Below are positions 3,935-45,385 of a DNA stretch of 64,000 bases, in pieces. The stretch's first letter is position 1; every line of letters begins with the position of its first letter. The position numbers and the translations under genes are program-made. The notes under the pieces were generated by a model. That model made no database searches, was not told the DNA's origin, and worked only from the letters and a program-made list of their open reading frames with translations. The stretch comes from Thermoanaerobaculia bacterium. GTDB lineage: Bacteria > Acidobacteriota > Thermoanaerobaculia > Multivoradales > JAIOJS01. The stretch is from the NCBI GenBank assembly GCA_030429235.1, contig JAUIDB010000010.1, positions 13,334-77,333 on the forward strand, read 5' to 3'.

Positions 3935-3950
3935 TGGCACGTCAGTTGCT
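3935..3950 (+). promoter_or_regulatory. Sigma54 (RpoN) -24/-12 promoter, TGGCACG-N4-TTGCT, oriented toward the CDS at 4073.
   Basis: Reads cacgTGGCACgtcagTTGCTcc, an exact GG-N10-GC arrangement. It lies about 120 nt upstream of the ATG at 4073. Confidence 0.45.
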
Positions 3951-5685: not shown

Positions 5686-6804
5686 CTAGCCCGTCCTTGG
5701 CGACCTACGCGATGGTGAGATCGCGGCTGAGCTTGCCCGGAAGAAGATCAACGCCGAGAGTAGCGGGCCACCGAGTATGAGCATGAATCCAGAGAACGCC
5801 CTCACAGCCACGTTCTGAATACTGAGGTAGTAGTCCACGAGATGACTCGAGTATTGCCAGGCGTATTGGACCGTGGCGATCGCGATGAGGGCTGAGATAG
5901 CCGGTGCGGCATACCGACGGAGCCACTCTTGGCGTTTGAAGAATGCCGAGATGGGAGCCACTAGAACGGAAAACACCACCAGCATTACGGTCAAGGCCAC
6001 AGAAGCCCGAATCCAGAGGTTCATAACGCCCTTCTGGGTCAACAGGTCTCTCATTCGCTGGCTTTTGGCATGGTCTCGTGCTAGCTTGCCATCCAGGTCT
6101 CGAATGTTGACGTCAGCTCCCATGGCGATTAGTACTTCCGCTACCTGTGTGTAGTCCTCTCTGACCGCGGCCATCAACGGTGTAGTGCCGTCCTGTGCAG
6201 TCGCATCGACTTCGAGGTGTCTTCCGCTGTCTCCGATCTCGGTGAGGATTTCATGGTGACCCCGGGCCGCTACAAACCACAGTGGCGCCGCACCTTCAGG
6301 CCCACCTTTCAGGTTCAGGTTCGCACCGCCGCTGACGAGTTCCCGGAAGACCTCCAGTCGGCCCCGTTTGGCAGCAATGACGAGGGGTGTCTCTCCAAGG
6401 CTGTTTCTCGTGTCGATGTCTGGCATCCTGTCTTGAGCTAGGAGGAGCCTCAGGGTCTGCGTATCTGCGTTTCTTGCGGCTACGTGTAGGACAGTGTCTC
6501 CTGGGGCCATTTCCACAGAGTCGCCTGCTCCCTCAGGGACACGAAGAAAGGCGTCGGCTCCGTTGGCAAGAAGAAGTCGTGCTAATCCGGTACGGCTTCG
6601 GGAGATCGCCCAGAGCAGGGCTGAGATGCCCTCTCCATCCAGTTGGTTCGCATCGCCGGTGTTGGCCAGAGCCGAGAAGAGTTCCTTGACGTTCCCGGAC
6701 TTGGCTGCGGAGACCAGTTTCCCCTCGTTCGCCGCCGCTTGGCTGCTTGCCACGGTAGTCGCAGCCAGCACAAGAGCCACTTTTCCAGCTATACCGAGAT
6801 TCAC
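5686..6804 (-). CDS. Ankyrin-repeat protein with an N-terminal signal peptide and C-terminal transmembrane helices.
   Basis: About 6-7 ANK repeats (GISALLWAI..LLLANGAD, TVLHVAARNADTQTLRLLL, TPLVIAAKRGRLEVFRELV, TPLMAAVREDYTQVAEVLIAMGADVN), followed by 3 hydrophobic helices. Confidence 0.8.
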   Translation of the reverse strand: MNLGIAGKVALVLAATTVASSQAAANEGKLVSAAKSGNVKELFSALANTGDANQLDGEGISALLWAISRSRTGLARLLLANGADAFLRVPEGAGDSVEMAPGDTVLHVAARNADTQTLRLLLAQDRMPDIDTRNSLGETPLVIAAKRGRLEVFRELVSGGANLNLKGGPEGAAPLWFVAARGHHEILTEIGDSGRHLEVDATAQDGTTPLMAAVREDYTQVAEVLIAMGADVNIRDLDGKLARDHAKSQRMRDLLTQKGVMNLWIRASVALTVMLVVFSVLVAPISAFFKRQEWLRRYAAPAISALIAIATVQYAWQYSSHLVDYYLSIQNVAVRAFSGFMLILGGPLLSALIFFRASSAAISPSRRSPRTG

Positions 6805-7619
6805 CGAGACTCACCCTTCCGAGACAGTTCGAGTTGAATTGATTGGAGTGACTCCCCAGTTCCTGCTAGGAAGCGAGATACCGCCTGCTTTTTTTCTGGC
6901 CGGAGATCTAGGGTTGCCGGACAGAGCCTCTTCTTCGTACAGCTGATACGGGATCGTTCCCACTCGTCTATGGATTGCGCCAACTCGAGCAGTCGAAGCG
7001 CTACGGTTTCTCGCTGTCGTTCGTAGCTATCGATTCTGTGAGACAGGGTGTTCTCGGTCCGTTCGGTTGTCTCCCGGACCGCAGTGAGTTCCTTTTTCGT
7101 CTCATAGAGCTGTTCGAGTGTTTCGTTGGCTTTGGCTTGCAGGTCCACAAGTTCGTCCTCGACGGTTTGTATGTGCGCCCCGACCCCAGCGAGTAGAAGC
7201 TCGAAACTCGTACGGATTTCCGAGCGCACTTCGTCGTCGTAGTTCTGAAGCTGCCCCTCCACTTGACGAAAGACCTTCTCTCGATGATCGTTAAAGGCGC
7301 TGGGAATTTGGTCTACGTACTGCATCACCTGCTCGTTGAGTTCGAGGTGTCTACGCACCAGATCGTCGTGTTCACTCCGAAGTACTGATAGCTCGACTTC
7401 GTGAATCCGGAGTTCCTTCCGGAGGTCGGCCGTCAACTCGTTCGCTCGCTGAAGCTGATCTGAACAGCCCTGGCCTTCGGACCTGCATCTCTTGAGATCC
7501 CTTTCGCAGCAGGCTGCGGTGCCACTGATAAGAAAGACGAGCAGTAGCCGAGTCGGCAACGAGCGGCTCCGGCGGTGGAGGCTCCTTTCAGATCGAACCA
7601 TCATGGATTCTTTGTCCAT
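6801..7619 (-). CDS. Coiled-coil protein, possibly a lipoprotein (hypothetical).
   Basis: Signal/lipobox-like LLLVFLISGTAAC, then heptad-rich Glu/Leu/Arg sequence. A 4-nt overlap with the downstream ankyrin gene indicates an operon. Confidence 0.55.
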   Translation of the reverse strand: MDKESMMVRSERSLHRRSRSLPTRLLLVFLISGTAACCERDLKRCRSEGQGCSDQLQRANELTADLRKELRIHEVELSVLRSEHDDLVRRHLELNEQVMQYVDQIPSAFNDHREKVFRQVEGQLQNYDDEVRSEIRTSFELLLAGVGAHIQTVEDELVDLQAKANETLEQLYETKKELTAVRETTERTENTLSHRIDSYERQRETVALRLLELAQSIDEWERSRISCTKKRLCPATLDLRPEKKQAVSRFLAGTGESLQSIQLELSRKGESR

Positions 7620-7820
7620 CCGATCTCCTTCTTCCGAGGCCTTCTCGGGCGGCCTTCACAAAACAACTCGTGGGGCCATGGATCTGCAAGGCCCGGGCCA
7701 AGCCCTCCCGGAGGCCTGGGTATGTCTGGACGCGATTTCCGGCGCGACCCCGAGTGCAAGCAGGTGAAGAGACTGGCTGTGGACGTTGCTAAGCTAGTGT
7801 CTACCCGTGTCTCTCGGAAG

Positions 7821-10638: not shown

Positions 10639-12414
10639 ATGCTGCGTTTTGTCGCCCGGAACGAGGGCCAGGAGCGTCGATTTCCGATCGCGGCCGATGG
10701 CGTGTGGACCGTAGGCTCGGCGATCGAGTGCGAACTCTCTGTCCCCTTCGACGGGGTCTCGCGGCGGCATGCCAGCCTCGAGCGCCGGGGAAGCCGAGTC
10801 TGGCTCACGGATTGTGGTTCCAAGAACGGCCTCAGGGTGGAGGGGCGGGTCGAGGCGCAGATCGAACTGCTGCCAGGGATTCGGGTAGACCTCGGTGGCA
10901 CGGTGGTCGAGATCGAAGAGGCAGCGTCGTCGGATACACGATTCGCGGTCGAGCTGCGGCGTTCGTCGAGCGTGGCTTCTCGACTGCGCACCAGTACGGC
11001 GGGAGCGATGGCCGGCGACGGACGTTCTTCACCCGCTGCCGCGCTCGCCTTCGTTCGGCGGTTCGAGCGAGCGTCGCTCCAACCGGGCTCGGAACTCTGG
11101 TCGCGACTCGTCGCCGAGACTCTGGAGATCCTCGAGGCCGAAACCGTGGCGGTGCTGCAGCGGGTTCCCGGGGAGCCTCGCGAGGTGTTGGAACAGTGCT
11201 GGGGCAGGCACCGGGTGCCAGGAGCCGAGGTAGAGGATCCGTGGAGCGCGGCCCAGCTCTCGGCCGAACTGGAAGGGGAATCGGCCAGAATCGTGGCCAT
11301 CCTGGGCCAGGGGGCCAAGGTCGATCGCTGGAAGGAGGACTTCTTCTCCTACCTGGCGACCCGCTGGCAGGAGCAGCGTCACGACCCTCCCGCTCCTCGC
11401 GCCCAGCCGGCCCAGGTCGAGCCGGAACGAGGCCCCGTGGTTCTCGGGCGCTCCGCCGCCATGGTAGAGGTCGAAACGCTGGCTCGGGCCGCGGCCGAGA
11501 GTGGTCTCAACGTCGTGCTCCTCGGCGAGACGGGGACCGGCAAGGAGGTTCTCTCACGCTTCATCCATCGTCTGCGTGCCACCGGGAAGGGTGAGCTGGT
11601 AGCGATCAACTGCGCTGCGATTCCCTCCGAACTCCTCGAAGCCGAACTCTTTGGCGTTGCCAGCCGAGTGGCGACCGGCGTAGATCCCCGCGAGGGGCTC
11701 TTCGTGCGCGCCCACGGGGGAACCCTTCTCCTGGACGAGATTGGCGAGATGCCCTACACGCTGCAGGCGAAACTGCTGCGAGCGCTCCAGGAGCGGGAGG
11801 TCATGCCGGTGGGAGGGCGACGGCCGATGCCGGTCGATCTTCGAGTCATCTCGACGACGCACCGTCCCCTGGCTCGGCTCGTGGCCGAGAAGAAGTTTCG
11901 CGCTGATCTCTACTACCGACTCCGCGGACTCGAGATCTGGCTTCCACCCCTCCGAGAGCGACTCGAAGACATTCCGGAGTTCGCCACTCTCTTTGCCCAG
12001 AGAGCAGCCCGTGCTTCGGGAAAGCGGGTCCGCGGGATCACCGAGCGTGCGCTGCGGCTTCTTACCTGCCACCGCTGGCCCGGCAACGTGCGGGAACTCG
12101 AGACCGACATGGAACGCGCTGTGGCGTTGTGTGCCGACGGAGGCAGCATCGACTCGCGGCTCTTCTCCCACCTGGATCCAGTCGCGGGACGACCTAGTTC
12201 CGTCTCGGTGCTCGAAGCCCCGACCTCGAGGGCCGTGGCGCCCAAGGCTGGCCACTCTACGGTCACACTGCGGGAGGAACTCGACGCTACCGAGCGCGAG
12301 CGAATCCGACGAGAGCTGGCGCTTTCGGGCGGCAACAAGTCGGAGGCCGCTCGAAGGCTCGGGGTGACCTGGAATGGGCTGGTGATGAAGATGAAGCGAT
12401 TGGGGTTACGGTAG
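10639..12414 (+). CDS. Sigma54-dependent transcriptional activator (bacterial enhancer-binding protein) with an N-terminal FHA domain.
   Basis: GGGGAGG RBS. FHA motif (GSAIECEL..GVSRRHASLERRGSRVWLTDCGSKNGLRVEG). AAA+ sigma54 interaction domain (LLGETGTGKEV, GAFTGA-like region). C-terminal Fis-type HTH (KSEAARRLGVTWNGLVMKMKRLGL). Confidence 0.9.
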   Translation: MLRFVARNEGQERRFPIAADGVWTVGSAIECELSVPFDGVSRRHASLERRGSRVWLTDCGSKNGLRVEGRVEAQIELLPGIRVDLGGTVVEIEEAASSDTRFAVELRRSSSVASRLRTSTAGAMAGDGRSSPAAALAFVRRFERASLQPGSELWSRLVAETLEILEAETVAVLQRVPGEPREVLEQCWGRHRVPGAEVEDPWSAAQLSAELEGESARIVAILGQGAKVDRWKEDFFSYLATRWQEQRHDPPAPRAQPAQVEPERGPVVLGRSAAMVEVETLARAAAESGLNVVLLGETGTGKEVLSRFIHRLRATGKGELVAINCAAIPSELLEAELFGVASRVATGVDPREGLFVRAHGGTLLLDEIGEMPYTLQAKLLRALQEREVMPVGGRRPMPVDLRVISTTHRPLARLVAEKKFRADLYYRLRGLEIWLPPLRERLEDIPEFATLFAQRAARASGKRVRGITERALRLLTCHRWPGNVRELETDMERAVALCADGGSIDSRLFSHLDPVAGRPSSVSVLEAPTSRAVAPKAGHSTVTLREELDATERERIRRELALSGGNKSEAARRLGVTWNGLVMKMKRLGLR

Positions 12415-12466: not shown

Positions 12467-13345
12467 TTATGCCACCAGCAAAGCCTTGGCCAGCGCCGCT
12501 CGCAGCTTTCCGAACACCACGGCGAGGTACATCAGGAGGAGCCCGATCGCCACCGTGGTTAGCCAGAGGCCGGGGAAGATCCACCAGGGCACGAACCACT
12601 CGAGCGAACCGAGGACCACGAGAGGGCGGTCGAAGATCAGCTGGGCGAAGGGACCGATGAAGCAGGAGAGGGCCAGACTGAGCAGGGTGACCGAGACGAC
12701 GAAGGTGAGAATGCCGAGTGGCAGGGAGAGCAGGCAGTAGAGCAGGGTCTTCCAGGTGAGGGAGTCGGTGAGCCAGTACCTGGCCTTGGGGAGCCAGCCC
12801 GTTTCGGTGGGCAGCGAGACCGGCCGTCGTGGCATGCGCACGCCGATCAACGCCTCGAGCAGACGCCCCTCTACCAATCCCAGCATGCGCAGGGACATGG
12901 CGAACCCGATGAAGAACGGCACGCCGAAGATGAGGATGCCGAACCCCAGGGACATCGACAGGCCGACCACCGCCCAGGTGAAGTAGAAGAGCCCGGTCAG
13001 GAGACCGAATAGCATGAGGAAGAGGGCCCCGTAGGCTTTGGGATCGATCAGCATGCCGAGGGTTCCGCTGAGGAAACTGACCACCGGCGCCGGGGTTTCG
13101 AGGGCCTTGGAGACCGTGATCTCGGTGGCCCGGTAGGAGGCGGCGACCTCCTGGGGCGACCCAAAACCGGCGATCGCACGGTCGACCAGCTCCTGCTCGG
13201 TGAGGTCACTCGCGGAAGAAGAACGCTCACTGCGCAGGAACTCGTCGACGTCGTAGAGAGCGTCCTGAACCATCGCAGGGTCGCTGGCGGTGAGTGCGAG
13301 GCGAATGGCATTGCGGTACTGTTCGGTGGTCTTGATACGAGTCAT
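12467..13345 (-). CDS. PadR-associated membrane protein (DUF1700/HAAS-like N-terminal helical domain plus multi-TM).
   Basis: The N-terminus TEQYRNAIRLALTAS..VQDALYDVDEFL resembles DUF1700. 5-6 TM helices follow. ATGA start/stop overlap with the upstream PadR gene. Confidence 0.6.
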   Translation of the reverse strand: MTRIKTTEQYRNAIRLALTASDPAMVQDALYDVDEFLRSERSSSASDLTEQELVDRAIAGFGSPQEVAASYRATEITVSKALETPAPVVSFLSGTLGMLIDPKAYGALFLMLFGLLTGLFYFTWAVVGLSMSLGFGILIFGVPFFIGFAMSLRMLGLVEGRLLEALIGVRMPRRPVSLPTETGWLPKARYWLTDSLTWKTLLYCLLSLPLGILTFVVSVTLLSLALSCFIGPFAQLIFDRPLVVLGSLEWFVPWWIFPGLWLTTVAIGLLLMYLAVVFGKLRAALAKALLVA

Positions 13346-35304: not shown

Positions 35305-35844
35305 CTATCGATTCTCCAGGTGTTGTCTCAGTCGGTTCAGGCCGCTCCGAACCCTCGACTTGAGGGTGCCGAGAGGGAGCTCGAGACGGCGCGCCGTCTC
35401 CTCGTAGGTCAGCCCGCCGAAGTAGGCGAGCTCGAGGGCGCTGCGCTGCCCGTCGTCCAGCTGACCGAGAGCCTGTACCACAGCGAGACGGGTCTCGAGA
35501 GAGAGCCGCAAGGGTGGTTGGATCGGCTCCGATTCCAAGGCGCTGGTGGGACGACGTCCCTGGTAGCGCAGGCGATCGAACCACTTGTTGCGGGCGATGG
35601 TGAAGAGCCAGCCGGCGGCGACTCCGCGCCGGGCATCGAAGGTCGTGGCTCGGTCCCAGACGGCGAGAAAGACGTCCTGGAGCAGGTCGTCGACGTCAGT
35701 CTTCGCTGCACCGAGGCTGCTCAGGTAGGCGGCGATGCGACCGCCGTACCGCTCGTAGAAGGTCGCAAAGGCGTGGCGGTCGCCGCTGGCGACGCGTCGC
35801 AGCAGCTCCTGGTCATCGATCGTCGGTGTGGGCAAGGGAATCAC
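35305..35844 (-). CDS. rpoE: ECF (group IV) sigma-70 factor, the RpoE partner of ChrR.
   Basis: Region 2 (ELLRRVASGDRHAFATFYERY) and region 4 (LTYEETARRLELPLGTLKSRVRSGL). GTG start. Confidence 0.85.
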   Translation of the reverse strand: MIPLPTPTIDDQELLRRVASGDRHAFATFYERYGGRIAAYLSSLGAAKTDVDDLLQDVFLAVWDRATTFDARRGVAAGWLFTIARNKWFDRLRYQGRRPTSALESEPIQPPLRLSLETRLAVVQALGQLDDGQRSALELAYFGGLTYEETARRLELPLGTLKSRVRSGLNRLRQHLENR

Positions 35845-36020
35845 AGTATGGCATCTCCGAGGGCCACAAAGTCGCTGCTTTCGGCAGGCTTGTCGATCCG
35901 TCCTACGTCGGCGGGGTGGATTTGGATGAAGTCATCTATCGCGGGCATCGTGGCGTAGACCTCCATGAAGCCACCGATCCACCGCGTGCGCCGCGCACCA
36001 TCTTCAAGGAGTTCCTGCCG

Positions 36021-37448
36021 ATGCTCTATCGTTTGTTTCGTAGAATGTTTCTCGCTCTGGTCTCGATCTCGCTCCTCGCTGCCGGCGCGTCGGCGAGCAC
36101 CCATCGAGGCCCGACCGTCGTCCCGACCGCGGAGGGTCAGATCGGGGAGACACCCGGGGTGGACGACCGGATCCTGGGGCCCCGCTTCGAGTCGATCCGA
36201 GGCCAGGCCGGCGAGGTCCTGTTGGGGAGCAGCGTGCTCTTCGGAGGGGTGATGCCGCCGCCGCCGGCCTTCGACTTCCTGACGGATCGGCTGCACGGCG
36301 CCAGCAATCCGGTACCGATCACCAGTGCCACGAGCTCCTTCCTGACGGTGCCGATGCAGTCTCCGGCCTCGGATCGGCGGCGCGCGGCCAGTGGGCTCGG
36401 TGACTTCGTGGCCTTCAGTTTCGCCGTCGACGGCTCATTGCCCCAGACGATGACGGTTCGGATCGCCACCTTCGACGAAGACGGGACGACGCTGGCCTCG
36501 GTGCCGGTGGCGGTCGATGTCCCGACGTTCAGCGTTCCGGACCCCTTGTTCACCAAGACCGGCGTAGCGGTCGACGACCAGGGTCGGGCTACCGTCGTCT
36601 TCACCCAATTCGACTCCGGGATTCCTACGGTGCGCGGTCAGCGGGTGAGTGTAGTGACGGGAGCCCCGATCGGTGGGTCGTTCCCGATCGGACCCGCGGC
36701 TCAGGCGAACCCTGACGTCGCTCTGCTCGATCCGGCGGGCGATCGACTGATCGTGGCCTCCAACCGCTTCACCAATCCCCCGGTGCTGGTCGGCAATATC
36801 GTCGACTTCTCCTCGGGCAGCCCCGTGGTCTTGCCGGAGTTCACGATCCCCAATACCCCGGCCAGTTTCGGCAACTTACTCACCGATGTTGCCGCAGACC
36901 CGGCCACCGGTACCTCCACCGTGGTCTGGGATCAGTTGACCGGCGTGCTCGGCAACCCGGCCGACGTGCGCGCCCGGCGCTTCGACGCCATGGGCAACCC
37001 CATCGGTGGCGACTTCCAGGTCAACACGCTCGATGCCAACGCGCAGGGCCAGGCGGCGGTGGCCTACGGACCGAACGGCAACTCGGCCATCATCTGGGCG
37101 GGAGATCCCGCCGCACCGCAGGGTCCCGAGGATCTCGACGTGTTCGGCCAGGCCTACGACGCCGACGGCAATCCGATCGGCGGCGAGGTGCCGGTGAACA
37201 CGTTCACGACCAACACCCAGGACCGGCCGACGGTTCGGTTTCTACCAGAGCCGGACGCGCAGGGTCGGTCCCAGTTCGCCGTCGCCTGGCGCGACACCGG
37301 GGACTCCACGGGGGCAACTCCGCGCGGCACCGGTCAGAGCTACCGCTGCTTCTCGATCGAAGGTCTGGAGGATCCTACGGAGATCTTCGCCGACGGCTTC
37401 GAGTCCGGGGACACGACATCATGGTCCGAGACGCAGCCCGGGTCATAG
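36021..37448 (+). CDS. Secreted hypothetical protein carrying the C-terminal FADGFESGDTTSW tail.
   Basis: AAGGA RBS. Signal peptide MLYRLFRRMFLALVSISLLAAGASA. The last 21 aa are IFADGFESGDTTSWSETQPGS. Confidence 0.65.
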   Translation: MLYRLFRRMFLALVSISLLAAGASASTHRGPTVVPTAEGQIGETPGVDDRILGPRFESIRGQAGEVLLGSSVLFGGVMPPPPAFDFLTDRLHGASNPVPITSATSSFLTVPMQSPASDRRRAASGLGDFVAFSFAVDGSLPQTMTVRIATFDEDGTTLASVPVAVDVPTFSVPDPLFTKTGVAVDDQGRATVVFTQFDSGIPTVRGQRVSVVTGAPIGGSFPIGPAAQANPDVALLDPAGDRLIVASNRFTNPPVLVGNIVDFSSGSPVVLPEFTIPNTPASFGNLLTDVAADPATGTSTVVWDQLTGVLGNPADVRARRFDAMGNPIGGDFQVNTLDANAQGQAAVAYGPNGNSAIIWAGDPAAPQGPEDLDVFGQAYDADGNPIGGEVPVNTFTTNTQDRPTVRFLPEPDAQGRSQFAVAWRDTGDSTGATPRGTGQSYRCFSIEGLEDPTEIFADGFESGDTTSWSETQPGS

Positions 37449-37493
37449 CTTCGGAAACCAGAGTCTTACCCGAGAGCAACGGCGATGACCGGT

Positions 37494-38888
37494 CTAGGTC
37501 TGGTCGTCCTGCTCCGGTCGGGCAATGCCGAGACTGTTCATCTTCTGATGGAGATGGGTCCTCTGCAGTTCGAGCAGGCGGGCGGCAGCGGCCACGTTCC
37601 AGCCCGTGCTGGCGAGGGCGCGTCGGATGTGGCGGGCCTCGGCGATCTCCTTGAACCGGCGAAAGGGGAGTACGGGGCCGTCGAAGGGGTCGTCGCCATC
37701 GGCTCCGCTCTCAGAGGTCCGGGGATCGAGCATCTCGACCGGTAGCTGCTCGGGAGTGACGGGGTCGGTGCCAAAGACGACGAGCCGCTCGGTCAGGTTT
37801 TCGAGTTCGCGAACGTTGCCGGGCCACGGGTACTGTTCGAGGATCGGATAGACGGCCTCGGTGGCGGCGAGTTGGCGCACGCGGTGGCGAGTCCAGGCCC
37901 GACGGAGAAAGTGGTCGAAGAGGAGCCGGATGTCTCCGGAGCGCTGGCGCAGCGGAGGGACTTCGATCGGCAGGTGGGCGAGGCGGAAGTACAGGTCCTG
38001 TCGGAAGGACTGGTTCCGGATGCCCTCCTCCAGTTGGGCGTGGGTGGCGGCGAGGACCCGCACGTCGACCTCTCGGTCGCGGGTCTCGCCGATGCGGCGG
38101 ACGCGGCCGTCCTCGAGAACCCTGAGGAGGCGGGACTGTAACCGGTAGTCCATGTCGCCGATCTCGTCGAGGAAGAGGGTCCCGCCGTGAGCCTCTTCGA
38201 AAAGGCCCCGTTTGTCGCTGGCGGCGCCGGTGAACGCTCCCTTGACGTGGCCGAAGAGCTCGTCCTCGACCAGATCCTGCGGGATCGCGGCGCAGTTGAG
38301 TTTGATGAAGGGTTGGCGCGCCCGTGGGCTGCCGCGATGGATGGCGTCGGCCACGAGCTCCTTGCCGGTACCACTCTCGCCGAGGATGAGGACCCGACCC
38401 TCGGTCGGGGCCGCTTTGGCGATCGCCTCGCGGAGGGCCAGCATGGCCGGCGACTCGCCGATCAGTTCCGACTGGCCGCGCAGCTCGGACTCGAGGTCCT
38501 GGACCCGCGTTCTCAGGCTGGAGTGTTCGAGGGTGTTCTCGATCGATCGGCGGAGGCGCTCGGTACTGAACGGCTTCTCGATGAAGTCGTGGACGCCGAG
38601 CTTGAGGGCCTCGACCGTCTCGGCGATCGAGGCCTCCCCGGAAACGATGATCGTCGGCGGGAGACGATCCGACTCGGCCAGGCGTCGGATCAACTCGACG
38701 CCGCTCAGGCCGGGCAAACGCACGTCGACCAGCATCAGGCCCGGAGGGTTGTCGGGTCGGGAGTCGAGCCATTCCAGGGCCGCCTCGGCGGTGTCGGTGG
38801 CCGCGGCCCGGTGTCCCGCCTCTTTGAGCTGGAAGAGCAGGTTGGCGCGAATCCTCGGATCGTCCTCGACGACGAGAACCTCGATCAT
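37494..38888 (-). CDS. NtrC-family sigma54-dependent response regulator (REC + AAA+ + Fis HTH).
   Basis: REC (VLVVEDD...DVRLPG), ESGTGKE, GAFTGA, and C-terminal HTH. Confidence 0.9.
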   Translation of the reverse strand: MIEVLVVEDDPRIRANLLFQLKEAGHRAAATDTAEAALEWLDSRPDNPPGLMLVDVRLPGLSGVELIRRLAESDRLPPTIIVSGEASIAETVEALKLGVHDFIEKPFSTERLRRSIENTLEHSSLRTRVQDLESELRGQSELIGESPAMLALREAIAKAAPTEGRVLILGESGTGKELVADAIHRGSPRARQPFIKLNCAAIPQDLVEDELFGHVKGAFTGAASDKRGLFEEAHGGTLFLDEIGDMDYRLQSRLLRVLEDGRVRRIGETRDREVDVRVLAATHAQLEEGIRNQSFRQDLYFRLAHLPIEVPPLRQRSGDIRLLFDHFLRRAWTRHRVRQLAATEAVYPILEQYPWPGNVRELENLTERLVVFGTDPVTPEQLPVEMLDPRTSESGADGDDPFDGPVLPFRRFKEIAEARHIRRALASTGWNVAAAARLLELQRTHLHQKMNSLGIARPEQDDQT

Positions 38889-40114
38889 TCGGTACTCCGT
38901 GCGGACGGCGCCTCGGGTTCGGGCGGCGGCAGGGTGAGCTGGAAGGTGGCGCCGCCGGTCGAGCTCGAAACCAGTCGAAGGTCGCCACCGTGGTCGAGGA
39001 GGATCTTCTTGGAGATCGCCAGACCGAGTCCCATCCCCTCGCCGACGTTCCGGGTCGTCGTGTAGGGCTGGAAGAGGCTGTCACTCACCTGGGCGGCGAT
39101 GCCGGGGCCGTCATCGGCCACGTCGACCTGCACCTCGTGGTCGAGGCAGCGAACCTCCAGGGTCACCGACACCGAGCCCGGGGCCGCGGCGGCGGAACTG
39201 TTATCCCAGAGGTTCACCAGCACTTGACGCATCATGTCGCGGTCGATGTTGACGAAAGCGGGTCCGCTGGTGACGCACTGGAGGGAGAGGTTGTCCCAGG
39301 CATCCTGGTAGATCTCGGCGAGTTCGGCCAGGAGACTCGACAGGTCGACGCGCTGTAGCTTCGGCCGCGGCAGCCGGGCGAAGGAGCTGAAGCGGTGGGT
39401 GAACTCGGTGAGTCGATCCAGTTCCTGCCGGGCCCCGTCGAGGAACTCGTCGATCTCGGCGGCAGTGGCGCGAGGGTTCTTCTGCAGTGTGTTGCCCAGG
39501 CGAGCCAATTCGAGGCGCAAACCGGTGATGGGAGAGCGCATCTCGTGGGCGTGGCGTCGCGCTGCTTCCTGCCAGGCGGACAGGTTTTCGAGCATGGCCA
39601 GTCGTTGGCGGTCACCGGCCATGCGGCGCGAGGTCTCCTCGATCATGGCTGCGATCCTACCGAGGACGCCCCGCCCGCTCTCGCCCGTGTCGAGGACCGG
39701 TCGGCCTTCGGCGAGCCGACCGAGCGACTCTCGGAGCCGCTCGAGGCGGCGCTCGCGGTTCGTCTGGCGCCAAACCAGGCCGCCGGCTACCACCAGGAGG
39801 CAGAGGGCGAAGAGGGTGAGCCCGAGTGCCTCGGATCGCGCCACCAGGTCGGCTCGACTGCGCTCCAAGACCTGGAGTCGGTGCAGCGTCGATTCGATCC
39901 GATCGAATCGTTCGCGGTACTCGGCCGCTCGCTCCGGATCCAGCTCCGCCAGCCGCTTCTGGTCGTCGAGCGAGCCGGACAGTCGATCGAGTACCTCGGG
40001 GTGGGCGCCGAAGGCGAAGGAAGCCTGCGAGAGCTGTCGCTGTAGGACCTGAAAGAGGAGGGCCGCGAGCAGGATGGCTCCGAGCGTGGCGACGATCGGG
40101 GTGCGAAGCTTCAT
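38885..40114 (-). CDS. Sensor histidine kinase (2 TM, HisKA, HATPase_c).
   Basis: The internal ATG gives MKLRTPIVATLGAILLAALL. HEMRSPITGL H-box. DDGPGI...GLGLAI G-boxes. A 4-nt overlap with the RR gene. Confidence 0.85.
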   Translation of the reverse strand: MKLRTPIVATLGAILLAALLFQVLQRQLSQASFAFGAHPEVLDRLSGSLDDQKRLAELDPERAAEYRERFDRIESTLHRLQVLERSRADLVARSEALGLTLFALCLLVVAGGLVWRQTNRERRLERLRESLGRLAEGRPVLDTGESGRGVLGRIAAMIEETSRRMAGDRQRLAMLENLSAWQEAARRHAHEMRSPITGLRLELARLGNTLQKNPRATAAEIDEFLDGARQELDRLTEFTHRFSSFARLPRPKLQRVDLSSLLAELAEIYQDAWDNLSLQCVTSGPAFVNIDRDMMRQVLVNLWDNSSAAAAPGSVSVTLEVRCLDHEVQVDVADDGPGIAAQVSDSLFQPYTTTRNVGEGMGLGLAISKKILLDHGGDLRLVSSSTGGATFQLTLPPPEPEAPSARSTE

Positions 40115-40800
40115 GGGCGCGGTGCCTTTTCGAGGCGCAGTGTCCATTCCAGATGCACCATGGGTCGACGGCGGATCGAGGTGCTGAGGAGTCCGTCGAA
40201 GACGCGGTCGAGAGAGCTCTCGCTGCGCTCGAGACGATCCTTGGACTCCGATTCGGCCGTACGACTGGAACGTACCGACTCGGCAAACCAACGCTGGGTC
40301 TCGCGCTGTTCGGCCGCCGAGAAGGGAACCACCTGGAGGCGCACCCGGAGGGCGGGAGGCGGGTCGTGGGCAAGAGCAGCCGCGCACAGTGGGACCTCGA
40401 GGTCGGACCACCAGCCCCGGAGGTCGGCGGGGTCGGCCAGGGTTCGGCGGGTGGTGCTGTCCGGAGTTCGGAAGGTGGTGACCTGAAACTGCTCCTCCCA
40501 GAGCTCGTACCGAATCTGGATCGTGGTCCGGGCCAGGGAGGCCTTGCGGTTCAGGGCCAACTCGAACCTGAAGTGCGTGGTCAGACCGGTCTGGAGGTGT
40601 CGCTCGATCTCGGGGTCATCCAGGATTTCGGGCAGCTGCGAGAGGAGCACACACTCCTCATTGGACCGAGAGAGCCGCGGCGGGTCGGCGGCCAAGGAGG
40701 AGCCCAAACAGAGGATCAAGCAGAGACCCCAGAATCCCCGAGTCGCGGGGCGACGAGGCAGGACCGACGACGGGGGCACCCGGTAGAGCAAAGGTCGCAC
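40111..40800 (-). CDS. Periplasmic DUF4390-like protein encoded immediately upstream of the HK-NtrC pair.
   Basis: About 229 aa with a signal peptide. A 4-nt overlap with the HK start. The size and context fit my recollection of DUF4390. The family assignment is from memory, not a search. Confidence 0.5.
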   Translation of the reverse strand: MRPLLYRVPPSSVLPRRPATRGFWGLCLILCLGSSLAADPPRLSRSNEECVLLSQLPEILDDPEIERHLQTGLTTHFRFELALNRKASLARTTIQIRYELWEEQFQVTTFRTPDSTTRRTLADPADLRGWWSDLEVPLCAAALAHDPPPALRVRLQVVPFSAAEQRETQRWFAESVRSSRTAESESKDRLERSESSLDRVFDGLLSTSIRRRPMVHLEWTLRLEKAPRP

Positions 40801-40803
40801 CGG

Positions 40804-42336
40804 CTACTGCTTCCCTCGATCCAGGTAGGCCAACCGCAAGGAGACCACGCCCCATGGGCTGCGGAACGACAGACCGCTGCTGACCTCGAACCCCCGTTCG
40901 AAGTCGGGCGCAGCGGGAGAACCGGCGAACGAACTGCCGTCGAACAGGGTCAGGGCCTGGGTCCAACGCAGTTCCCGGCTCCCGTGCCGACGGCTGGAGT
41001 GTAGGAGTAGGCTGTGTTGGAGCGAAGCCTGCAGTCGCCACACCGTCGAACGACTCGATCCGAGGCCCAGTCCCGAAGGCGCGACGTCGTCCACCTTGCG
41101 TTCTCCGGCCAGGATCCGACCGGAGACACCCAGCGACTGCCGGGCACCGAACGAGCGGTGGAGTTCCCCTCCCAGTGAGAGGCCGAGCAGGGACGAGTCC
41201 ATCTCCGCCAGCGGGGTCGTGGAGTCGAGGAAGGAGCGAATCGGGCCGAGCCGCGCGGTCAGGTGCTGCCACTCGATTCCCGCCTGCAAGCGGGCCCCGT
41301 CGGTGGGGAAGAGGGGGTCGTCGACCGAGTCGAATCGCCACGCCAACTCCAGCCGCTGGTCCTCACGGTCCTCGAAGCCCAGGGTGCTCTCGACCACCGG
41401 AGCGACGGCGGACCGACGGATCCCGGAATCGCTCCGCCGCGCTTCACCGCGGAGGAGCAGGGAGTGGTTGCGCCGCAGGGGGACTCCAAGGTCGAGCCGG
41501 AACCGGGTCGTGCGTTCGCCGGCGCTCCAGGTCGAGGCCGTCGGGTCGAGGACGTCGTGGAGCTGAGTACGGCACTCACTGCCGGCCGCCGGGACCGCGT
41601 CGTGGCCGATGGCCGACTCGAGAGAATCCACGATCTGCTGCCGCACGTCCTCGCAGTGCACGGTCGAGACGCTGAGGGTGGCCAGGCCCCCGCGGCCGAA
41701 AGGGTCGTAGCGGCTGACCCCCGCGGTGAGTTCGCCATCCCCACTGACGACGCCGAACGCGACGAGGCTCGGGCCGAGAGCGAAACGCCGACCGGCGAAC
41801 AGGGTCGTTCCGTCGACCCGATCGGTGGTGGCCAGCCCGTCGACCGAGACGTCGTGGGCCCACCAGGTGGCCTCGGAATACAGGCCGAAGACCCACCTTC
41901 GGACCTCTTCGACCCGAATCTGCAGGTGGTACAGACCGCGGGAGGAACCCTTCTCGAGCGAGAACTCGGCGTCCAGGACCAGGGGGAGCCGGACGATGCG
42001 GGCCATGGCCTGGCCGAGCTGCGACTCGCTGTAGGCGTGGCCCTCCTCCAACTGTGCCGTGTTGAGGAGGCTGGTCGTCGACAGCAGGGAGATGCCGTCG
42101 ACGGCGATCGTCTCGATCGCGAACCGAGGGCCCTCCGGGGGCGGCGGGGGCGAGGCGGCGTGCGTGGCCGGCGGGGGAGGCTGGGCGCGTCCCGTGGAGG
42201 GGCCCACCGCGGATCCCAGGAGGAGAGCGAGGCCGATCAGGACGACCGGCCGCCTCCAGCTTCCGCGGAGCCGGTTGCGGTGTGGCGGAGCGGGCCGCGG
42301 GATTCCCTGCACAAGGCCTGGTCGTCGGGTTCTCAT
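40804..42336 (-). CDS. POTRA-domain outer-membrane beta-barrel protein (TpsB/ShlB or BamA-like).
   Basis: Signal peptide. POTRA-like IAVDGISLLSTTSLLNTAQLEEGHAYSESQLGQAMARIVRL. Alternating beta-strand pattern through the C-terminus. Confidence 0.6.
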   Translation of the reverse strand: MRTRRPGLVQGIPRPAPPHRNRLRGSWRRPVVLIGLALLLGSAVGPSTGRAQPPPPATHAASPPPPPEGPRFAIETIAVDGISLLSTTSLLNTAQLEEGHAYSESQLGQAMARIVRLPLVLDAEFSLEKGSSRGLYHLQIRVEEVRRWVFGLYSEATWWAHDVSVDGLATTDRVDGTTLFAGRRFALGPSLVAFGVVSGDGELTAGVSRYDPFGRGGLATLSVSTVHCEDVRQQIVDSLESAIGHDAVPAAGSECRTQLHDVLDPTASTWSAGERTTRFRLDLGVPLRRNHSLLLRGEARRSDSGIRRSAVAPVVESTLGFEDREDQRLELAWRFDSVDDPLFPTDGARLQAGIEWQHLTARLGPIRSFLDSTTPLAEMDSSLLGLSLGGELHRSFGARQSLGVSGRILAGERKVDDVAPSGLGLGSSRSTVWRLQASLQHSLLLHSSRRHGSRELRWTQALTLFDGSSFAGSPAAPDFERGFEVSSGLSFRSPWGVVSLRLAYLDRGKQ

Positions 42337-42412
42337 GGAGTCCGGACAGAGCCTCTCACAGGTTGCGCGGTGGCGCCAGGACGGCCCGCTCTCGCCACAG
42401 GGTCCATCCCGC

Positions 42413-43060
42413 CTAGAAGCGGTACCCGAGTCCGAGACTCAGGGAGTCGAAGTCGATGTCGACGGTTCCGTAGTCGACCAGCAGGTCGAGGCGGGGCGTC
42501 AGGTCGACGCGAGCGCCGGCACCGAGGAGTAGCTCGCTTCCAGTCAGCCGACCGAGGTACCCGAAGGTCGGTTGCACCGCCGAGATACGCTCTTCGTAAT
42601 AGCCCAGACCAACCCGTCCGAAGAGCGTAGTGCGGCCGAAATGGGTCTGCGGCACGAAGGCAAAGGTGAACAGTTCGAGGTCGGCCTCGACTTTGGCCAG
42701 CAGTTCGATGCAGAGAACCAGGGGGCCGGGAAAGCAGGCGGAACCCCAGCCCTCGAGATCATCGGCCCTTTGGTAGCCAACCTCGATGGCGAGGTTGCGG
42801 TGCAGTTCGAACCCGAAGACGACGGCTGGGGAGACCGCCTCGTTGTCGAAGTCCCAAGCGTGTAGGCCTTCGTAGGTGCGGTCGAAGGCCGCCAGTCCGC
42901 CCTTGAAGTCGACGTAGAAACGTTCCTCGGCCGCGCTTGGCGCCGCCAGGGCGAAGAGCACGCAGAGCCAGGCGAGGCCGGGAAGGAGCCTTCGAGACGT
43001 CGCAGGGGACCGGCGGGTCGTGGGGGCTGGGAGGTGGTTGCGGAGGAGGGAATGGTGCAT
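42413..43060 (-). CDS. Small outer-membrane beta-barrel protein (OmpA-like / OMP_b-brl).
   Basis: AGGAGA RBS. Signal peptide LAWLCVLFALAAPSAA. Alternating amphipathic strands. Ends ...GLGYRF with a C-terminal Phe. Confidence 0.7.
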   Translation of the reverse strand: MHHSLLRNHLPAPTTRRSPATSRRLLPGLAWLCVLFALAAPSAAEERFYVDFKGGLAAFDRTYEGLHAWDFDNEAVSPAVVFGFELHRNLAIEVGYQRADDLEGWGSACFPGPLVLCIELLAKVEADLELFTFAFVPQTHFGRTTLFGRVGLGYYEERISAVQPTFGYLGRLTGSELLLGAGARVDLTPRLDLLVDYGTVDIDFDSLSLGLGYRF

Positions 43061-43103
43061 GGTGTCTCCTGGTCGGTGGAAAGGGTTCGATGCCTCTGAC
43101 GAC

Positions 43104-43119
43104 AGCAATGACCTTGCCA
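43104..43119 (-). promoter_or_regulatory. Sigma54 -24/-12 promoter TGGCAA-N5-TTGCT heading the OMP -> POTRA-OMP -> DUF4390 -> HK -> NtrC operon.
   Basis: The minus strand reads tTGGCAAggtcaTTGCTg with exact GG-N10-GC spacing. It lies about 45 nt upstream of the ATG at 43060. Confidence 0.4.
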
Positions 43120-43309
43120 ACCTCGGGGGCGGAGGGCTCGGGTGGAGCGATCCTGGCCGATCCGAAGGTTGAGAAGAATCGGGGCCGGTCGGCGCCTCGT
43201 GTCCGAGAGGGGCGAGTCGTTCGTAGCCACCGACGGTGGTGTCTGGGAAACCAGACGGTTCCGCACCATGGAGCCCCGGTCACTGCCCGTTGGAAACGGA
43301 GGAATCGTC

Positions 43310-43325
43310 TGGCCTCGGGATTGCA
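43310..43325 (+). promoter_or_regulatory. Sigma54-like promoter TGGCCT-N5-TTGCA upstream of the divergent OMP gene.
   Basis: cTGGCCTcgggaTTGCAc has the correct GG-N10-GC spacing. The -24 half is degenerate. It lies about 28 nt upstream of the ATG at 43353. Confidence 0.3.
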
Positions 43326-43352
43326 CCGGCTTCCGAACCAGGAGGATCTCTG

Positions 43353-43904
43353 ATGACCAAACTTCTCTGTTCGACCCTTCTCCTACTCGTCGCTGGACCG
43401 TTGGCGGCTCTGCCGGATCTCTGGATCGGAGCTGGGGTGGGTAGTTCTCCCACGGCCGGTACCCAGGGCGCCAGCTTCCCCTCGGTCACCGAGACCGACG
43501 GGCCGAGCTGGCGGCTGAGCGCCGGCGCCGAACTGGGACGTTTTTTCGGTCTGGAACTTGCCTACCGGGACTTGGCGCGCCAGCTCTGTTGCGAGGGGTT
43601 CGCGGACCTCGGGTTCGATCTCTCGGTTCGAGGGCTCTCGGCGGCGCTCTCGAGTCGACTCCCCCTGAACCGCTTCTCGCTCTTCGCCAAGATCGGTGTC
43701 TTCACCTGGGAGGAGGAGGGCAACTTGCTGACGATCGCCGGGCCCCGCGACTTCGCCGCCGACGGCACCGACCTGTTGATCGGCGCGGGGATCGACTACG
43801 AACTCTGGCGCGACCTTGGAGTCCGAGCGGATTGGGAACGTCTCGAGTTCAACGATCTTTCGAGCGACCTCTTCTGGATCTCGGTGCAGTGGCGCTTCGA
43901 GTGA
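43353..43904 (+). CDS. Small outer-membrane beta-barrel protein (OMP_b-brl).
   Basis: AGGAGGA RBS. Signal peptide MTKLLCSTLLLLVAGPLAA. Aromatic-rich beta-strand pattern through the C-terminus. Confidence 0.7.
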   Translation: MTKLLCSTLLLLVAGPLAALPDLWIGAGVGSSPTAGTQGASFPSVTETDGPSWRLSAGAELGRFFGLELAYRDLARQLCCEGFADLGFDLSVRGLSAALSSRLPLNRFSLFAKIGVFTWEEEGNLLTIAGPRDFAADGTDLLIGAGIDYELWRDLGVRADWERLEFNDLSSDLFWISVQWRFE

Positions 43905-43999
43905 GATGCACCGGGGCCTGCCATCCGACGGGCTCCTGAGTCTCGGGGACCGGCGAAGCGGGTCGTCAGGCAGCGCAGGCGTCGGTGCGACCACTCGAC

Positions 44000-45385
44000 T
44001 CAGCCGAGGAGGCCGTCCGGATTCCAGGTGCGGCGCACCCGGTGGAGTCGCTCGAGGTCGACTCCTCCGCTGGCGCCGCGCCGCTCGCTTTCGTCTGAGT
44101 CCTCGGTCAGAAAGTTGACGTAGCCACCACGCTGCGATCGGGCGTGGACCTGGGTCCAGAAGTCCCGAACCCAACGGAGGTTGGCCTCGTCTTCCGACGG
44201 GTCGGTCCAGGCGGTGGCGATCACGACGATGTACCGAGCATCGCGGTGTCCGGCGGCCGAGTGCTGGGCCGAAACCCGGGCGACCGCGCCCCCCAGCTCG
44301 AAGACCTTGATGTTGGCGGCGGGGGAGGGCAGCTGCTGGAGCGCGCGGAGCAGAATCGCCTGCAGCTCGTCATCGAGTTCGCCGATGTACTCGGACTTCC
44401 AGTAGTTGCGCCGCCCGTCGGGCTCGCCGGCGTCGAACATCGCCTGGAACTGTCCGAACCGGCGGGGTTCGAAGAGGTCGGCGGCCAGGCCGGGCCCGAT
44501 GCGGAGCGGCGCGAGGTCGGTGGCAGCCTGCTCGAGATCGTCGCCACTATGGCAGCCGATGGTGGCAGCGCAGGGCTGGCCGTGGAGGTCGGCTTCCAGG
44601 AACGGGGCGGCCGGAGCCGCGCCGAGCTTCAATAGGCAGGTCAGTTCCTCGGGCCGGTTGCGCTCCCGCGAGCGGAACCGTCGAAATGCCGCTTCCGCGT
44701 CGCGGTGGAAGACCACTCCGGCCAGCACCTCGTGGTCGAGGCGGTGCGACCGGAAGTGGAAGGTGGTGACGACGCCTAGACCGCCGCCGCCGCCCCGGAG
44801 CGCCCAGAGGAGCTCGGGGTGGCTGTCGGCGTCGACGCGCACGGCTTCACCGGTGGCGGTGACCAGGTCGACCGCCTCGAGGTGGTCGCAGGTCAAGCCC
44901 CAGCGGCGGGAGAGCCAGCCGAAACCACCCCCGAGGGTGAGGCCGGCGATCCCGGTGGCCGAGACGATGCCGCTGGGGACGACGCGGCCGTGCGGCAGCG
45001 TGCCGGCGTCGAGGTCTCCCAAGGTGGCCCCCGGTTCCACGACGACGCGCTCACCTTCGATCCGCACCCCGCGGCGGTGGCCCTGGTAGACCACCACTCC
45101 TCCGTCAGCGAGGGCCCGTCCACCGATATTGTGTCCGCCACCCCGGACGCTGAGCGGCAAAGCATGGGTCCGGGCGAAGCGAACACACTCCTGCACGTCG
45201 GAGACGTCGTCGCAGCGCACGATGAGTTGCGGCTGACGCTCGATCATGGCGTTCCAGAGGGTGCATGCCGTGGGGTAGCCCGGATCCTCTGGGGTCAGGG
45301 CCTCGCCGCCCAGACGCGAACGCAGGGCCTCCAGGCCCTCCAGGGGGTGTGACGTCAAGGGGCTCGTAGGGGGTGTTTCGCGCAT
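44000..45385 (-). CDS. FAD-linked oxidase (FAD_binding_4 / BBE-like oxidoreductase).
   Basis: GAGGAG RBS at the internal ATG. PLSVRGGGHNIGG FAD-binding motif. C-terminal BBE-like domain. Confidence 0.85.
   Translation of the reverse strand: MRETPPTSPLTSHPLEGLEALRSRLGGEALTPEDPGYPTACTLWNAMIERQPQLIVRCDDVSDVQECVRFARTHALPLSVRGGGHNIGGRALADGGVVVYQGHRRGVRIEGERVVVEPGATLGDLDAGTLPHGRVVPSGIVSATGIAGLTLGGGFGWLSRRWGLTCDHLEAVDLVTATGEAVRVDADSHPELLWALRGGGGGLGVVTTFHFRSHRLDHEVLAGVVFHRDAEAAFRRFRSRERNRPEELTCLLKLGAAPAAPFLEADLHGQPCAATIGCHSGDDLEQAATDLAPLRIGPGLAADLFEPRRFGQFQAMFDAGEPDGRRNYWKSEYIGELDDELQAILLRALQQLPSPAANIKVFELGGAVARVSAQHSAAGHRDARYIVVIATAWTDPSEDEANLRWVRDFWTQVHARSQRGGYVNFLTEDSDESERRGASGGVDLERLHRVRRTWNPDGLLG

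Follow-up and report, generated by a model that had tools for sequence, protein, structure and literature searches.

A predicted sigma-54-dependent operon linking an Omp85-like barrel to a two-component system in Acidobacteriota

In the RcsF and NlpE pathways, information about the outer membrane is carried to an inner-membrane kinase by a dedicated envelope protein: RcsF, together with BamA and outer membrane proteins (OMPs), feeds the Rcs phosphorelay, which involves an Omp85-family protein in the process, and NlpE acts with CpxA. To our knowledge, these accessory proteins are lipoproteins whose genes do not lie together with those of an Omp85 protein and the kinase, and their outputs are not sigma-54-dependent. 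Classical autoregulated sigma-54 operons of the NtrC family include glnALG and zraP/zraSR. In the second case, zraP and zraSR diverge from one common intergenic region, each with a sigma-54 promoter of its own, and the ZraP protein plays an accessory role in the periplasm.

A further type of accessory component is represented by PlrP of Bordetella, a periplasmic DUF4390 protein that constitutes the third component of the NtrYX-family two-component system PlrS-PlrR (PMC13001219, J Bacteriol 2026). The genes plrP and plrS overlap by 4 bp, and the accompanying survey of DUF4390 proteins covered Proteobacteria only (PMC13001219). Two-component control of an Omp85 protein is exemplified by BamK, an inducible BamA paralogue under BaeSR (PMC13059784). 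Here, we describe a locus in a 64-kb stretch of DNA (the window) from a Thermoanaerobaculia bacterium of the phylum Acidobacteriota, and compare it with these systems.

Gene content and conservation

Five co-directional open reading frames occupy the minus strand from position 43060 down to 37494, and the coordinates that an earlier note had given for this run hold for all five. The first gene encodes a small OMP barrel (A, 42413-43060, 215 aa), followed by genes for a single-POTRA, Omp85-like protein (B, 40804-42336, 510 aa), a predicted periplasmic protein with a GTG start (C, 40111-40800, 229 aa), a histidine kinase (HK, 38885-40114, 409 aa) and an NtrC-type sigma-54 activator response regulator (RR, 37494-38888, 464 aa). 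A second small OMP barrel (F, 43353-43904, 183 aa) is encoded divergently on the plus strand. Three 4-nt overlaps had been claimed for the operon; those at the C/HK and HK/RR junctions are present (ATGA in both), whereas B and C are separated by a 3-nt spacer in the window (TAG CCG GTG), a 4-nt B/C overlap being found in several related loci.

About 20 related loci, almost all of them from Acidobacteriota, have the gene order B-C-HK-RR, with unrelated flanks and often with 4-nt overlaps, which bears out the view of these genes as one real, conserved unit. Gene B always precedes gene C, the two are always adjacent, and gene C lies directly 5' of the HK gene, with the NtrC-type regulator gene next, in all complete related loci. 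The conserved core is therefore B, C, HK and RR, four translationally coupled genes. Small OMP genes such as A are variable, lineage-dependent cargo: they lie between promoter and gene B in loci L001, L002, L003 and L007, and are absent from L008-L012, L015, L021 and L022. Gene A, the first of the operon, is an accessory rather than a core gene, as many relatives do without a small OMP gene.

Proteins A and F each have a signal peptide, end in an aromatic beta-signal (...GYRF in A, ...WRFE in F) and match Pfam OMP_b-brl (PF13505, gathering score 28.7), at E 8e-11 and 42.8 bits for A, an OmpA/OmpX-like beta-barrel, and at E 5e-13 and 50.0 bits for F, which also matches OmpA_membrane (8e-6). Both are small OMP barrels, as had been noted, but the term "paralogous" is too strong for two proteins so distantly related, with 25% of the residues identical across 105 aa (pairwise E 4e-5).

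Protein B carries a signal peptide, one POTRA domain (approximately residues 71-144) and, in the predicted model, a barrel of about 16 strands. The modelled POTRA forms a beta-alpha-alpha-beta-beta unit (residues 71-144, pLDDT 84-93); positions 318-394 of the BamA profile TIGR03303 match residues 68-144 (E 2e-6), and Pfam POTRA_1 reaches just E 0.06. With an N-terminal POTRA, as in the Omp85 superfamily, B scores 25.8 bits against Pfam Omp85 (PF01103, gathering score 24), a cutoff below which most of its relatives fall. Foldseek aligned the model with BamA and TamA (E ~1e-9, probability 1.0), and hhalign against E. coli BamA yielded E 3.7e-4, a W.Y..D..FPTDG barrel motif being common to both proteins. 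By its predicted fold, B is a divergent member of the Omp85 superfamily with a 16-strand barrel. For the L6 motif (V/I)RG(F/Y), a hallmark of Omp85 proteins, no conserved RG[FY] column was found in an alignment of nine family members, in which the equivalent region reads F-x-G-x-x-D-x-x-D-V-P; the absence of the motif is compatible with a non-insertase role. A conserved cysteine pair (C228, C255) is located in a long loop.

The invariable adjacency of B and C could also be explained if B were a TpsB-type exporter that delivers C to the cell surface, with the two-component system merely regulating the pair. This is very unlikely. The earlier note had wavered between ShlB and Omp85 for the POTRA barrel, and the Omp85-like fold has prevailed, albeit without the L6 motif: the ShlB/TpsB identity was rejected for lack of a PF03865 match at E<=0.1, B has one POTRA rather than two, the top 50 Foldseek matches are BamA or TamA throughout, and the L6 RGY motif, on which TpsB transporters depend, is missing. 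Moreover, C is a compact beta-sandwich of 200 aa in which neither a TPS domain nor a beta-helix was detected.

Protein C is predicted to be secreted, with a length of about 200 aa and a signal peptide. A hydrophobic stretch, GFWGLCLILCLGSSLAA, is located at its N-terminus ahead of the conserved domain, with counterparts in the homologues; the predicted model has an N-terminal helix followed by an Ig/FnIII-like beta-sandwich, and a helical hairpin forms the C-terminus. The family motifs are HLxTGLTT, IRYELWDE and PFSxxEQxxTQRWF. DUF4390 (PF14334), to which C had been assigned, is indeed the best Pfam match, but the assignment fails the Pfam threshold for the window protein (E 0.054, 13.4 bits vs a gathering score of 27), for the family consensus (13.2 bits) and for 44 of 46 family members, E<=0.1 being reached in just 2 of the 46. 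A Sulfidibacter member of the family is labelled DUF4390 by UniRef, and a Pfam search with the same protein gave no match. Residues 23-142 of the consensus are collinear with profile positions 8-130 of 161, and C may be a very divergent, PlrP-like DUF4390 protein. As had been suggested, C could be the sensing partner of the kinase, for which PlrP with PlrS/PlrR is a published precedent (PMC13001219).

The kinase, an inner-membrane protein, matches Pfam HATPase_c (8e-23) and HisKA (3e-5) only; PAS or PDC domains were not detected in this search. Hydropathy indicates two transmembrane segments, at about residues 2-26 and 90-117, which enclose a helical periplasmic loop of about 70 aa, whose motifs are conserved in an alignment of 15 orthologues. 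The response regulator consists of a receiver (Response_reg, 1e-24), an AAA+ sigma-54 interaction domain (Sigma54_activat, E 1e-68) with an intact GAFTGA motif at residue 217, and a Fis-type HTH (HTH_8, 1.6e-8), as is typical of NtrC-type proteins. It reaches neither of the NCBIfam equivalog cutoffs for ntrC (390 bits vs 559) and NtrX (347 vs 600). An NtrYX-family identity of the pair was considered and rejected on the basis of this NtrX score and of the 409-aa kinase, which is devoid of PDC, HAMP and PAS domains.

Promoter elements and a conserved palindrome

A sigma-54 promoter of the -24/-12 type, TGGCAAGGTCATTGCT, is predicted for the operon at 43104-43119 on the minus strand, 44 nt before the ATG start of gene A. 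The -24 GG and -12 GC are present at exact spacing and close to the gene start, and the element is conserved in orthologous loci: a counterpart precedes the B-C-HK-RR unit in nearly all of them (L001-L003, L006-L012, L015, L016, L018 and L021-L023). Divergently, at 43310-43325 on the plus strand, a sigma-54-like element, TGGCCTCGGGATTGCA, is located 27 nt upstream of the gene F ATG, and an AGGAGG ribosome-binding site lies between element and start codon. Both elements, separated by 191 bp, are exactly as previously described. The candidate F promoter is supported by its sequence, which deviates from TGGCAC-N5-TTGCW at two positions, and by its placement; gene F is specific to this genome and absent from the related loci, and its promoter therefore has no comparative support.

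Between the two promoters, at 43240-43257, lies the palindrome TGTCTGGGAAACCAGACG (TGTCTG-N6-CAGACG), a predicted upstream activating sequence. Measured from its midpoint, the minus-strand promoter is 129 bp away and the plus-strand promoter 61 bp. The family consensus of the palindrome, YGTMTG-N6-CAKACR, was worked out by visual inspection of a subset of the data in which it was then counted. Of 17 independent loci, 15 carry it at a distance of 60-200 bp upstream of the sigma-54 element, and in 15 of the 17 the match is not equalled by any other window of the same size in the locus. When up to two mismatches are allowed, 20 matches occur in 261 kb, 13 of them within the interval 40-230 bp upstream. 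Loci L021 and L022, which were fetched once the pattern was fixed and hence are out of sample, both contain the palindrome. It is likely, judging from these sequence patterns, that the palindrome is the binding site of the activator RR.

Short motifs of this kind could arise by chance, in which case the cluster would be an ordinary sigma-70-transcribed one and the divergent OMP gene would not be co-regulated. The plus-strand element, with its mismatches, would be in keeping with this, as would the palindrome when the window is taken alone: it is the sole site with at most one mismatch, but at up to two mismatches 2 sites were found against 3.35 expected, which is not significant. However, in about 15 independent loci the -24/-12 element and the palindrome are found at matching relative positions, within intergenic DNA that cannot otherwise be aligned. 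Moreover, TGGC-N7-TTGCW is enriched tenfold in the window (5 observed vs 0.49 expected, with 0 of 100 shuffles reaching 5), the operon ends with the gene for a sigma-54 activator, and neither a sigma-70-like promoter nor a terminator was found within 37300-44100. Chance matches are thus extremely unlikely, and transcription of the operon is presumably sigma-54-dependent. The positive feedback and co-activation of a second OMP gene that had been suggested would fit a conserved palindrome between two divergent promoters. One point counts against this feedback scheme: a promoter that depends strictly on an activator cannot initiate the synthesis of that same activator, and therefore a basal promoter for HK-RR must exist, but none was found.

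A putative envelope-signalling pathway

The gene content, the domain and fold assignments, the synteny, the -24/-12 elements and the palindrome are directly supported by the analysis. The reading that we favor, at somewhat better than even odds, is that of an envelope-signalling module of Acidobacteriota that depends on sigma-54 and activates its own expression, with C as co-sensor and B as its outer-membrane end. Phosphorylated RR would bind TGTCTG-N6-CAGACG at 43240-43257 and, from this single palindrome, activate sigma-54 holoenzyme at both flanking promoters, raising the expression of A, B, C, HK, RR and F. In the periplasm, C would serve as a co-sensor and tune the balance between kinase and phosphatase activity of HK, as PlrP does for PlrS, and B would either anchor C or report the state of the outer membrane. 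In this genome, a small OMP gene (A) has come to occupy the first position of the operon, and a second one (F) is transcribed divergently.

Autoregulation is supported by the intact domains and GAFTGA motif of RR, and by the lack of sigma-70-like signals in 37300-44100. A partnership of C and HK is supported by the 4-bp overlap of their genes and by a kinase that has a conserved loop and no ligand-binding periplasmic domain. The same kinase speaks against the co-sensor step, as it is not NtrY-like and lacks the PDC, the proposed contact of PlrP. In Sulfidibacter corallicola, the palindrome and a sigma-54 promoter precede genes for an Omp85-like protein, a B-like protein and C, with no adjacent kinase or regulator gene, and B and C could therefore be regulated products.

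This last observation fits an explanation in which B and C are output only: HK would sense an envelope signal by its own loop, and B would be an alternative, stress-inducible insertase of the Omp85 type that, with C as periplasmic helper or client, assembles small OMPs such as A, F and their counterparts. The recurrence of small OMP genes as cargo between promoter and B agrees with it, and two-component induction of a BamA paralogue has a precedent in BaeSR, which activates bamK (PMC13059784). However, B lacks the L6 motif that is common to active Omp85 proteins, many loci consist of B-C-HK-RR alone and hold no client OMP gene, and a role for C as partner of the kinase is indicated by the near-universal translational coupling of C and HK and by the weak DUF4390 match. 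We regard the output-only explanation as possible, yet rather unlikely, and infer sensory roles for B and C.

Within the favored signalling module, it is tempting to speculate that an Omp85 barrel lost its catalytic L6 motif and was recruited as the outer-membrane sensor, resulting in a pathway from barrel to DUF4390-like periplasmic adaptor, minimal-loop kinase and sigma-54 activator that is widespread in Acidobacteriota; this more specific proposal is tentative, and we would sooner bet against it. If true, such a four-component trans-envelope pathway would represent a new mode of outer-membrane-to-cytoplasm signalling, and PlrP-type third components would be ancient and not confined to the NtrYX systems of Proteobacteria.

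Comparison with known systems

The resemblance to PlrP-PlrS-PlrR lies in a gene that overlaps the 5' end of the kinase gene by 4 bp and encodes a secreted protein some 200 aa long, in the NtrC/NtrX-family regulator gene that comes next, in DUF4390 as the best, though weak, Pfam match of C, and in the proposed role of C in periplasmic kinase modulation. Unlike PlrP, C remains below the DUF4390 gathering threshold, and unlike PlrS, the kinase has 409 aa and a helical loop of about 70 aa, with no PDC, HAMP or PAS. Further differences from the Bordetella system are the intact GAFTGA of RR and the predicted sigma-54 promoter of the operon, the Omp85-like gene that always precedes C, the lack of an rsmB neighbor, and the phylum, Acidobacteriota.

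B shares with BamA and TamA a POTRA and, in the predicted model, the 16-strand barrel fold, and its gene appears to be under two-component control, as is the Omp85 paralogue BamK (PMC13059784). It differs from BamA and TamA in having one POTRA instead of three to five, in lacking both L6 (V/I)RG(F/Y) and a C-terminal aromatic residue, and in a marginal sequence similarity that leaves most relatives below the Pfam threshold. In contrast to all three proteins, the gene for B is linked to those of its own kinase and regulator, both physically and by translational coupling.

Like glnALG and zraP/zraSR, the operon has a -24/-12 promoter and an upstream palindromic activator site, both predicted here, and encodes its own activator; with zraP/zraSR it further shares a single intergenic region with (predicted) divergent sigma-54 promoters. 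The sequence of the binding site, the accessory proteins (an Omp85-like barrel and a beta-sandwich protein) and the phylum set it apart from both. As in the RcsF and NlpE pathways, outer-membrane information is proposed to reach a kinase via an envelope protein, although the components are unrelated in sequence. The module is most likely a variant of accessory-protein two-component systems, and hints at a way, not previously described, of monitoring the condition of the outer membrane.

Operon layout and putative divergent σ54 promoters

The module is formed by five co-directional genes on the minus strand, which extend from 43060 to 37494 exactly as the earlier note had placed them. In operon order, they encode a small outer membrane barrel, A (42413-43060, 215 aa), an Omp85-like barrel with POTRA, B (40804-42336, 510 aa), a putative secreted or periplasmic β-sandwich protein, C (40111-40800, 229 aa, GTG start), a histidine kinase, HK (38885-40114, 409 aa), and an NtrC-type σ54 activator, RR (37494-38888, 464 aa). 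A second small barrel gene, F (43353-43904, 183 aa), is divergently oriented on the plus strand. Of the 4-nt overlaps claimed for the last three junctions, those of C/HK and HK/RR are real (ATGA), whereas B and C are separated by a 3-nt spacer. On the identical sequence, public gene calls place the start codon of B at GTG 42207 (467 aa) and that of C at GTG 40650 (179 aa), at the cost of both signal peptides; the longer starts, ATG 42336 and GTG 40800, agree better with homologues. Downstream of the operon lies a convergent 540-aa ORF without Pfam match (35826-37448, plus strand), for which the public gene call on that strand comprises 475 aa.

The operon is preceded by the σ54 element TGGCAAGGTCATTGCT (43104-43119, minus strand) and gene F by the σ54-like element TGGCCTCGGGATTGCA (43310-43325, plus strand); both are located as previously noted, at a spacing of 191 bp. 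The pattern TGGC-N7-TTGCW occurs five times in the window compared to 0.49 expected occurrences, and none of 100 shuffles reached this number. Neither a σ70-like promoter nor an intrinsic terminator was found between 37300 and 44100. Likewise, the A-B gap yielded no terminator or attenuator, and its RNA folding is no better than that of shuffled sequence (z = 0.4).

Further σ54-related features are found elsewhere in the window. A Ser/Thr protein kinase with TPR repeats (7575-10577, plus strand) is followed by a second σ54 activator (10639-12414, plus strand), which carries an N-terminal FHA domain in place of a receiver and suggests a kinase-to-FHA-activator pathway. An unknown 272-aa ORF (6801-7619, minus strand) and a subsequent ankyrin-repeat gene (5686-6804, minus strand) are divergent from this pair and could be its targets; the σ54-like element TGGCCCGGGCCTTGCA (7685-7700, minus strand) is located a short distance upstream of the former. 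A 439-aa ORF without Pfam match (4073-5392, plus strand) is preceded, at a distance of 123 nt, by a perfect-consensus σ54 element, TGGCACGTCAGTTGCT (3935-3950, plus strand). The TGGC-N7-TTGCT match at 12477-12492 (minus strand), at the 3' end of a minus-strand ORF and facing antisense of the FHA-activator gene, is probably due to chance.

A conserved four-gene core and its predicted regulator site

A pattern scan of species-representative genomes yielded 13 loci, of which 12 belong to Acidobacteriota, mainly Thermoanaerobaculia, and one to a MAG labelled Deltaproteobacteria. Across about 20 related loci (numbered with the prefix L), the gene order B-C-HK-RR is found wherever the sequence is long enough for an assessment, within unrelated flanks and with three variants: a tandem duplication, B-C-B-C-HK, in a Thermoanaerobaculia MAG (L012, 1793-5761), an inverted HK gene in L016, and the arrangement of the cultured Holophagae species Sulfidibacter corallicola (L018, 6468-10657). 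What lies between promoter and B differs among loci: the window, L001, L002, L003 (with two copies) and L007 contain small outer membrane barrels, L002 additionally contains an M23 peptidase, and L023 a DUF5666 protein. Therefore, A is regarded as cargo and not as part of the core. A and F both match Pfam OMP_b-brl (E 8e-11 and 5e-13, respectively); their kinship is only distant (25% identity over 105 aa), so that the term 'paralogous' used earlier is too strong. A counterpart of F was not found in the related loci compared, and A, C and F are without any model in an NCBIfam scan.

A TGGCAC-N5-TTGC-type element on the operon strand, close upstream of the first gene, is present in L001-L003, L006-L012, L015, L016, L018 and L021-L023. 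Alignment of the regions upstream of the σ54 elements revealed a palindrome, YGTMTG-N6-CAKACR with an A/T-rich spacer, whose centre is located 60-200 bp ahead of the -24 element. The pattern, which was defined by eye on a subset of the same data, has 20 matches with at most two mismatches in a non-redundant total of 261 kb. Of these, 13 lie in the interval 40-230 bp upstream, and in 15 of 17 independent loci the match is unequalled by any other segment of the same size within the locus. Moreover, L021 and L022, fetched once the pattern was fixed, carry it at the expected place with one and zero mismatches. The copy next to the operon, TGTCTGGGAAACCAGACG (43240-43257), is the sole site with at most one mismatch in 64 kb and the predicted binding site of RR; the operon promoter is 129 bp and the F promoter 61 bp away from its centre. 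A reading of the σ54 elements as chance matches is unlikely. A half-site-like GTCTGG (43301-43312) overlaps the -24 TGG of the plus-strand promoter and forms, together with the right palindrome arm, a 12-nt inverted repeat with 92% complementarity, 38 nt apart.

The core proteins

RR has the complete make-up of an NtrC-type enhancer-binding protein, including GAFTGA. In HK, only HisKA and HATPase_c were detected, and its two transmembrane segments enclose a loop of some 70 residues, which is predicted to be helical and is conserved among 15 orthologues; this architecture is not NtrY-like. A ligand-binding domain was not detected in HK, and neither HK nor RR reaches an NCBIfam equivalog cutoff.

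B barely clears Pfam Omp85 (25.8 bits, threshold 24) and has no ShlB match in the Pfam scan. The AF2 model (pLDDT 76) contains one POTRA unit (residues 71-144) and about 16 barrel strands, and Foldseek retrieves nothing but BamA or TamA among its top 50 hits (E about 1e-9); AF2-based statements here draw on shallow alignments of 7 and 9 sequences. With hhalign, B 202-352 aligns to residues 439-595 of E. coli BamA (E 3.7e-4, probability 36%), including a common W.Y..D..FPTDG motif, and the L6 hallmark (V/I)RG(F/Y) is conserved nowhere in the B family. By its predicted fold, B is thus an atypical member of the Omp85 superfamily, leaning towards BamA/TamA. Two-partner secretion, in which B and C would form the two partners, is unlikely. 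Two invariant cysteines of B, C228 and C255 (window 41570-41655), flank a long low-confidence loop between predicted strands 5 and 6, which may be a disulfide-stapled surface loop or plug. Word-index searches found only 9 homologues of B among 5.8 billion proteins, and in seven related loci three B homologues fall below the Pfam Omp85 threshold and four are without a recorded or reported match.

For C, the DUF4390 assignment of the earlier note was not confirmed by the profile check. DUF4390 is the best Pfam match of C, far under threshold (13.4 bits vs. 27); among 46 family members, only two reach E≤0.1 and the other 44 miss it, and the consensus of the family attains 13.2 bits in an alignment that is collinear over about 120 residues. 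One member, A0A8A4TK78 of S. corallicola, is labelled 'DUF4390 domain-containing protein' in UniRef and has no Pfam match in the copy scanned here. With the family profile, 434 cluster representatives are retrieved at E≤1e-3; a word-indexed profile search recovered the C family only and no bona fide DUF4390 sequences, tblastn of the consensus against plasmids gave only noise, and PDB sequence-profile searches produced no significant match to either B or C. A remote homology of C to DUF4390 is plausible. Since Pfam models miss many relatives of B and C, such modules are invisible to routine annotation.

A putative envelope-signalling pathway and the closest known systems

The best-supported reading is that of a σ54-dependent, positively autoregulated module. 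RR would bind the palindrome and activate both flanking promoters, C would act on kinase activity from the periplasm, and B, a barrel without the catalytic-loop motif, would supply the outer membrane end of the pathway. A strictly activator-dependent promoter needs a basal supply of HK and RR, for which no source was identified. Bordetella PlrP, a DUF4390 protein, is a periplasmic third component that restrains the phosphatase activity of PlrS (PMC13001219). With this precedent, the absence of a ligand-binding domain from HK, together with a presumably secreted, weakly DUF4390-like C whose gene is near-universally coupled translationally to that of HK, suggests that C modulates HK. According to the main rival explanation, B and C are merely outputs, i.e., an inducible Omp85 paralogue and its helper serving co-induced small outer membrane proteins. 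This is favoured by the BaeSR-bamK precedent (PMC13059784) and by S. corallicola, where palindrome and σ54 element are followed by two Omp85-like genes (471 and 448 aa), one of them B-like, and by C, with no kinase or regulator adjacent or within 10 kb downstream of C.

If true, the σ54-dependent, autoregulated module with C as a third component would take this principle into a different phylum and a different kinase architecture, and would add a hard-wired Omp85-family partner. Envelope regulation in Acidobacteriota is, to our knowledge, poorly understood. The analysis supplies testable predictions, namely YGTMTG-N6-CAKACR as a specific binding site, two promoters and a core of four defined genes, and S. 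corallicola provides a cultured organism with part of the system.

A literature search did not reveal any system in which an Omp85-like gene is hard-wired to a kinase, a σ54 regulator and a periplasmic protein. Known systems that come closest include envelope stress pathways with accessory proteins (RcsF, NlpE), classical autoregulated NtrC-family operons, such as zraP/zraSR, and the BamA/TamA/BamK proteins. Two-component systems with a periplasmic third component have been recognized only recently, PlrP being reported in 2026 (PMC13001219). PlrP-PlrS-PlrR is likewise among the closest systems, and its plrP and plrS genes overlap by 4 bp, like those of C and HK (PMC13001219).
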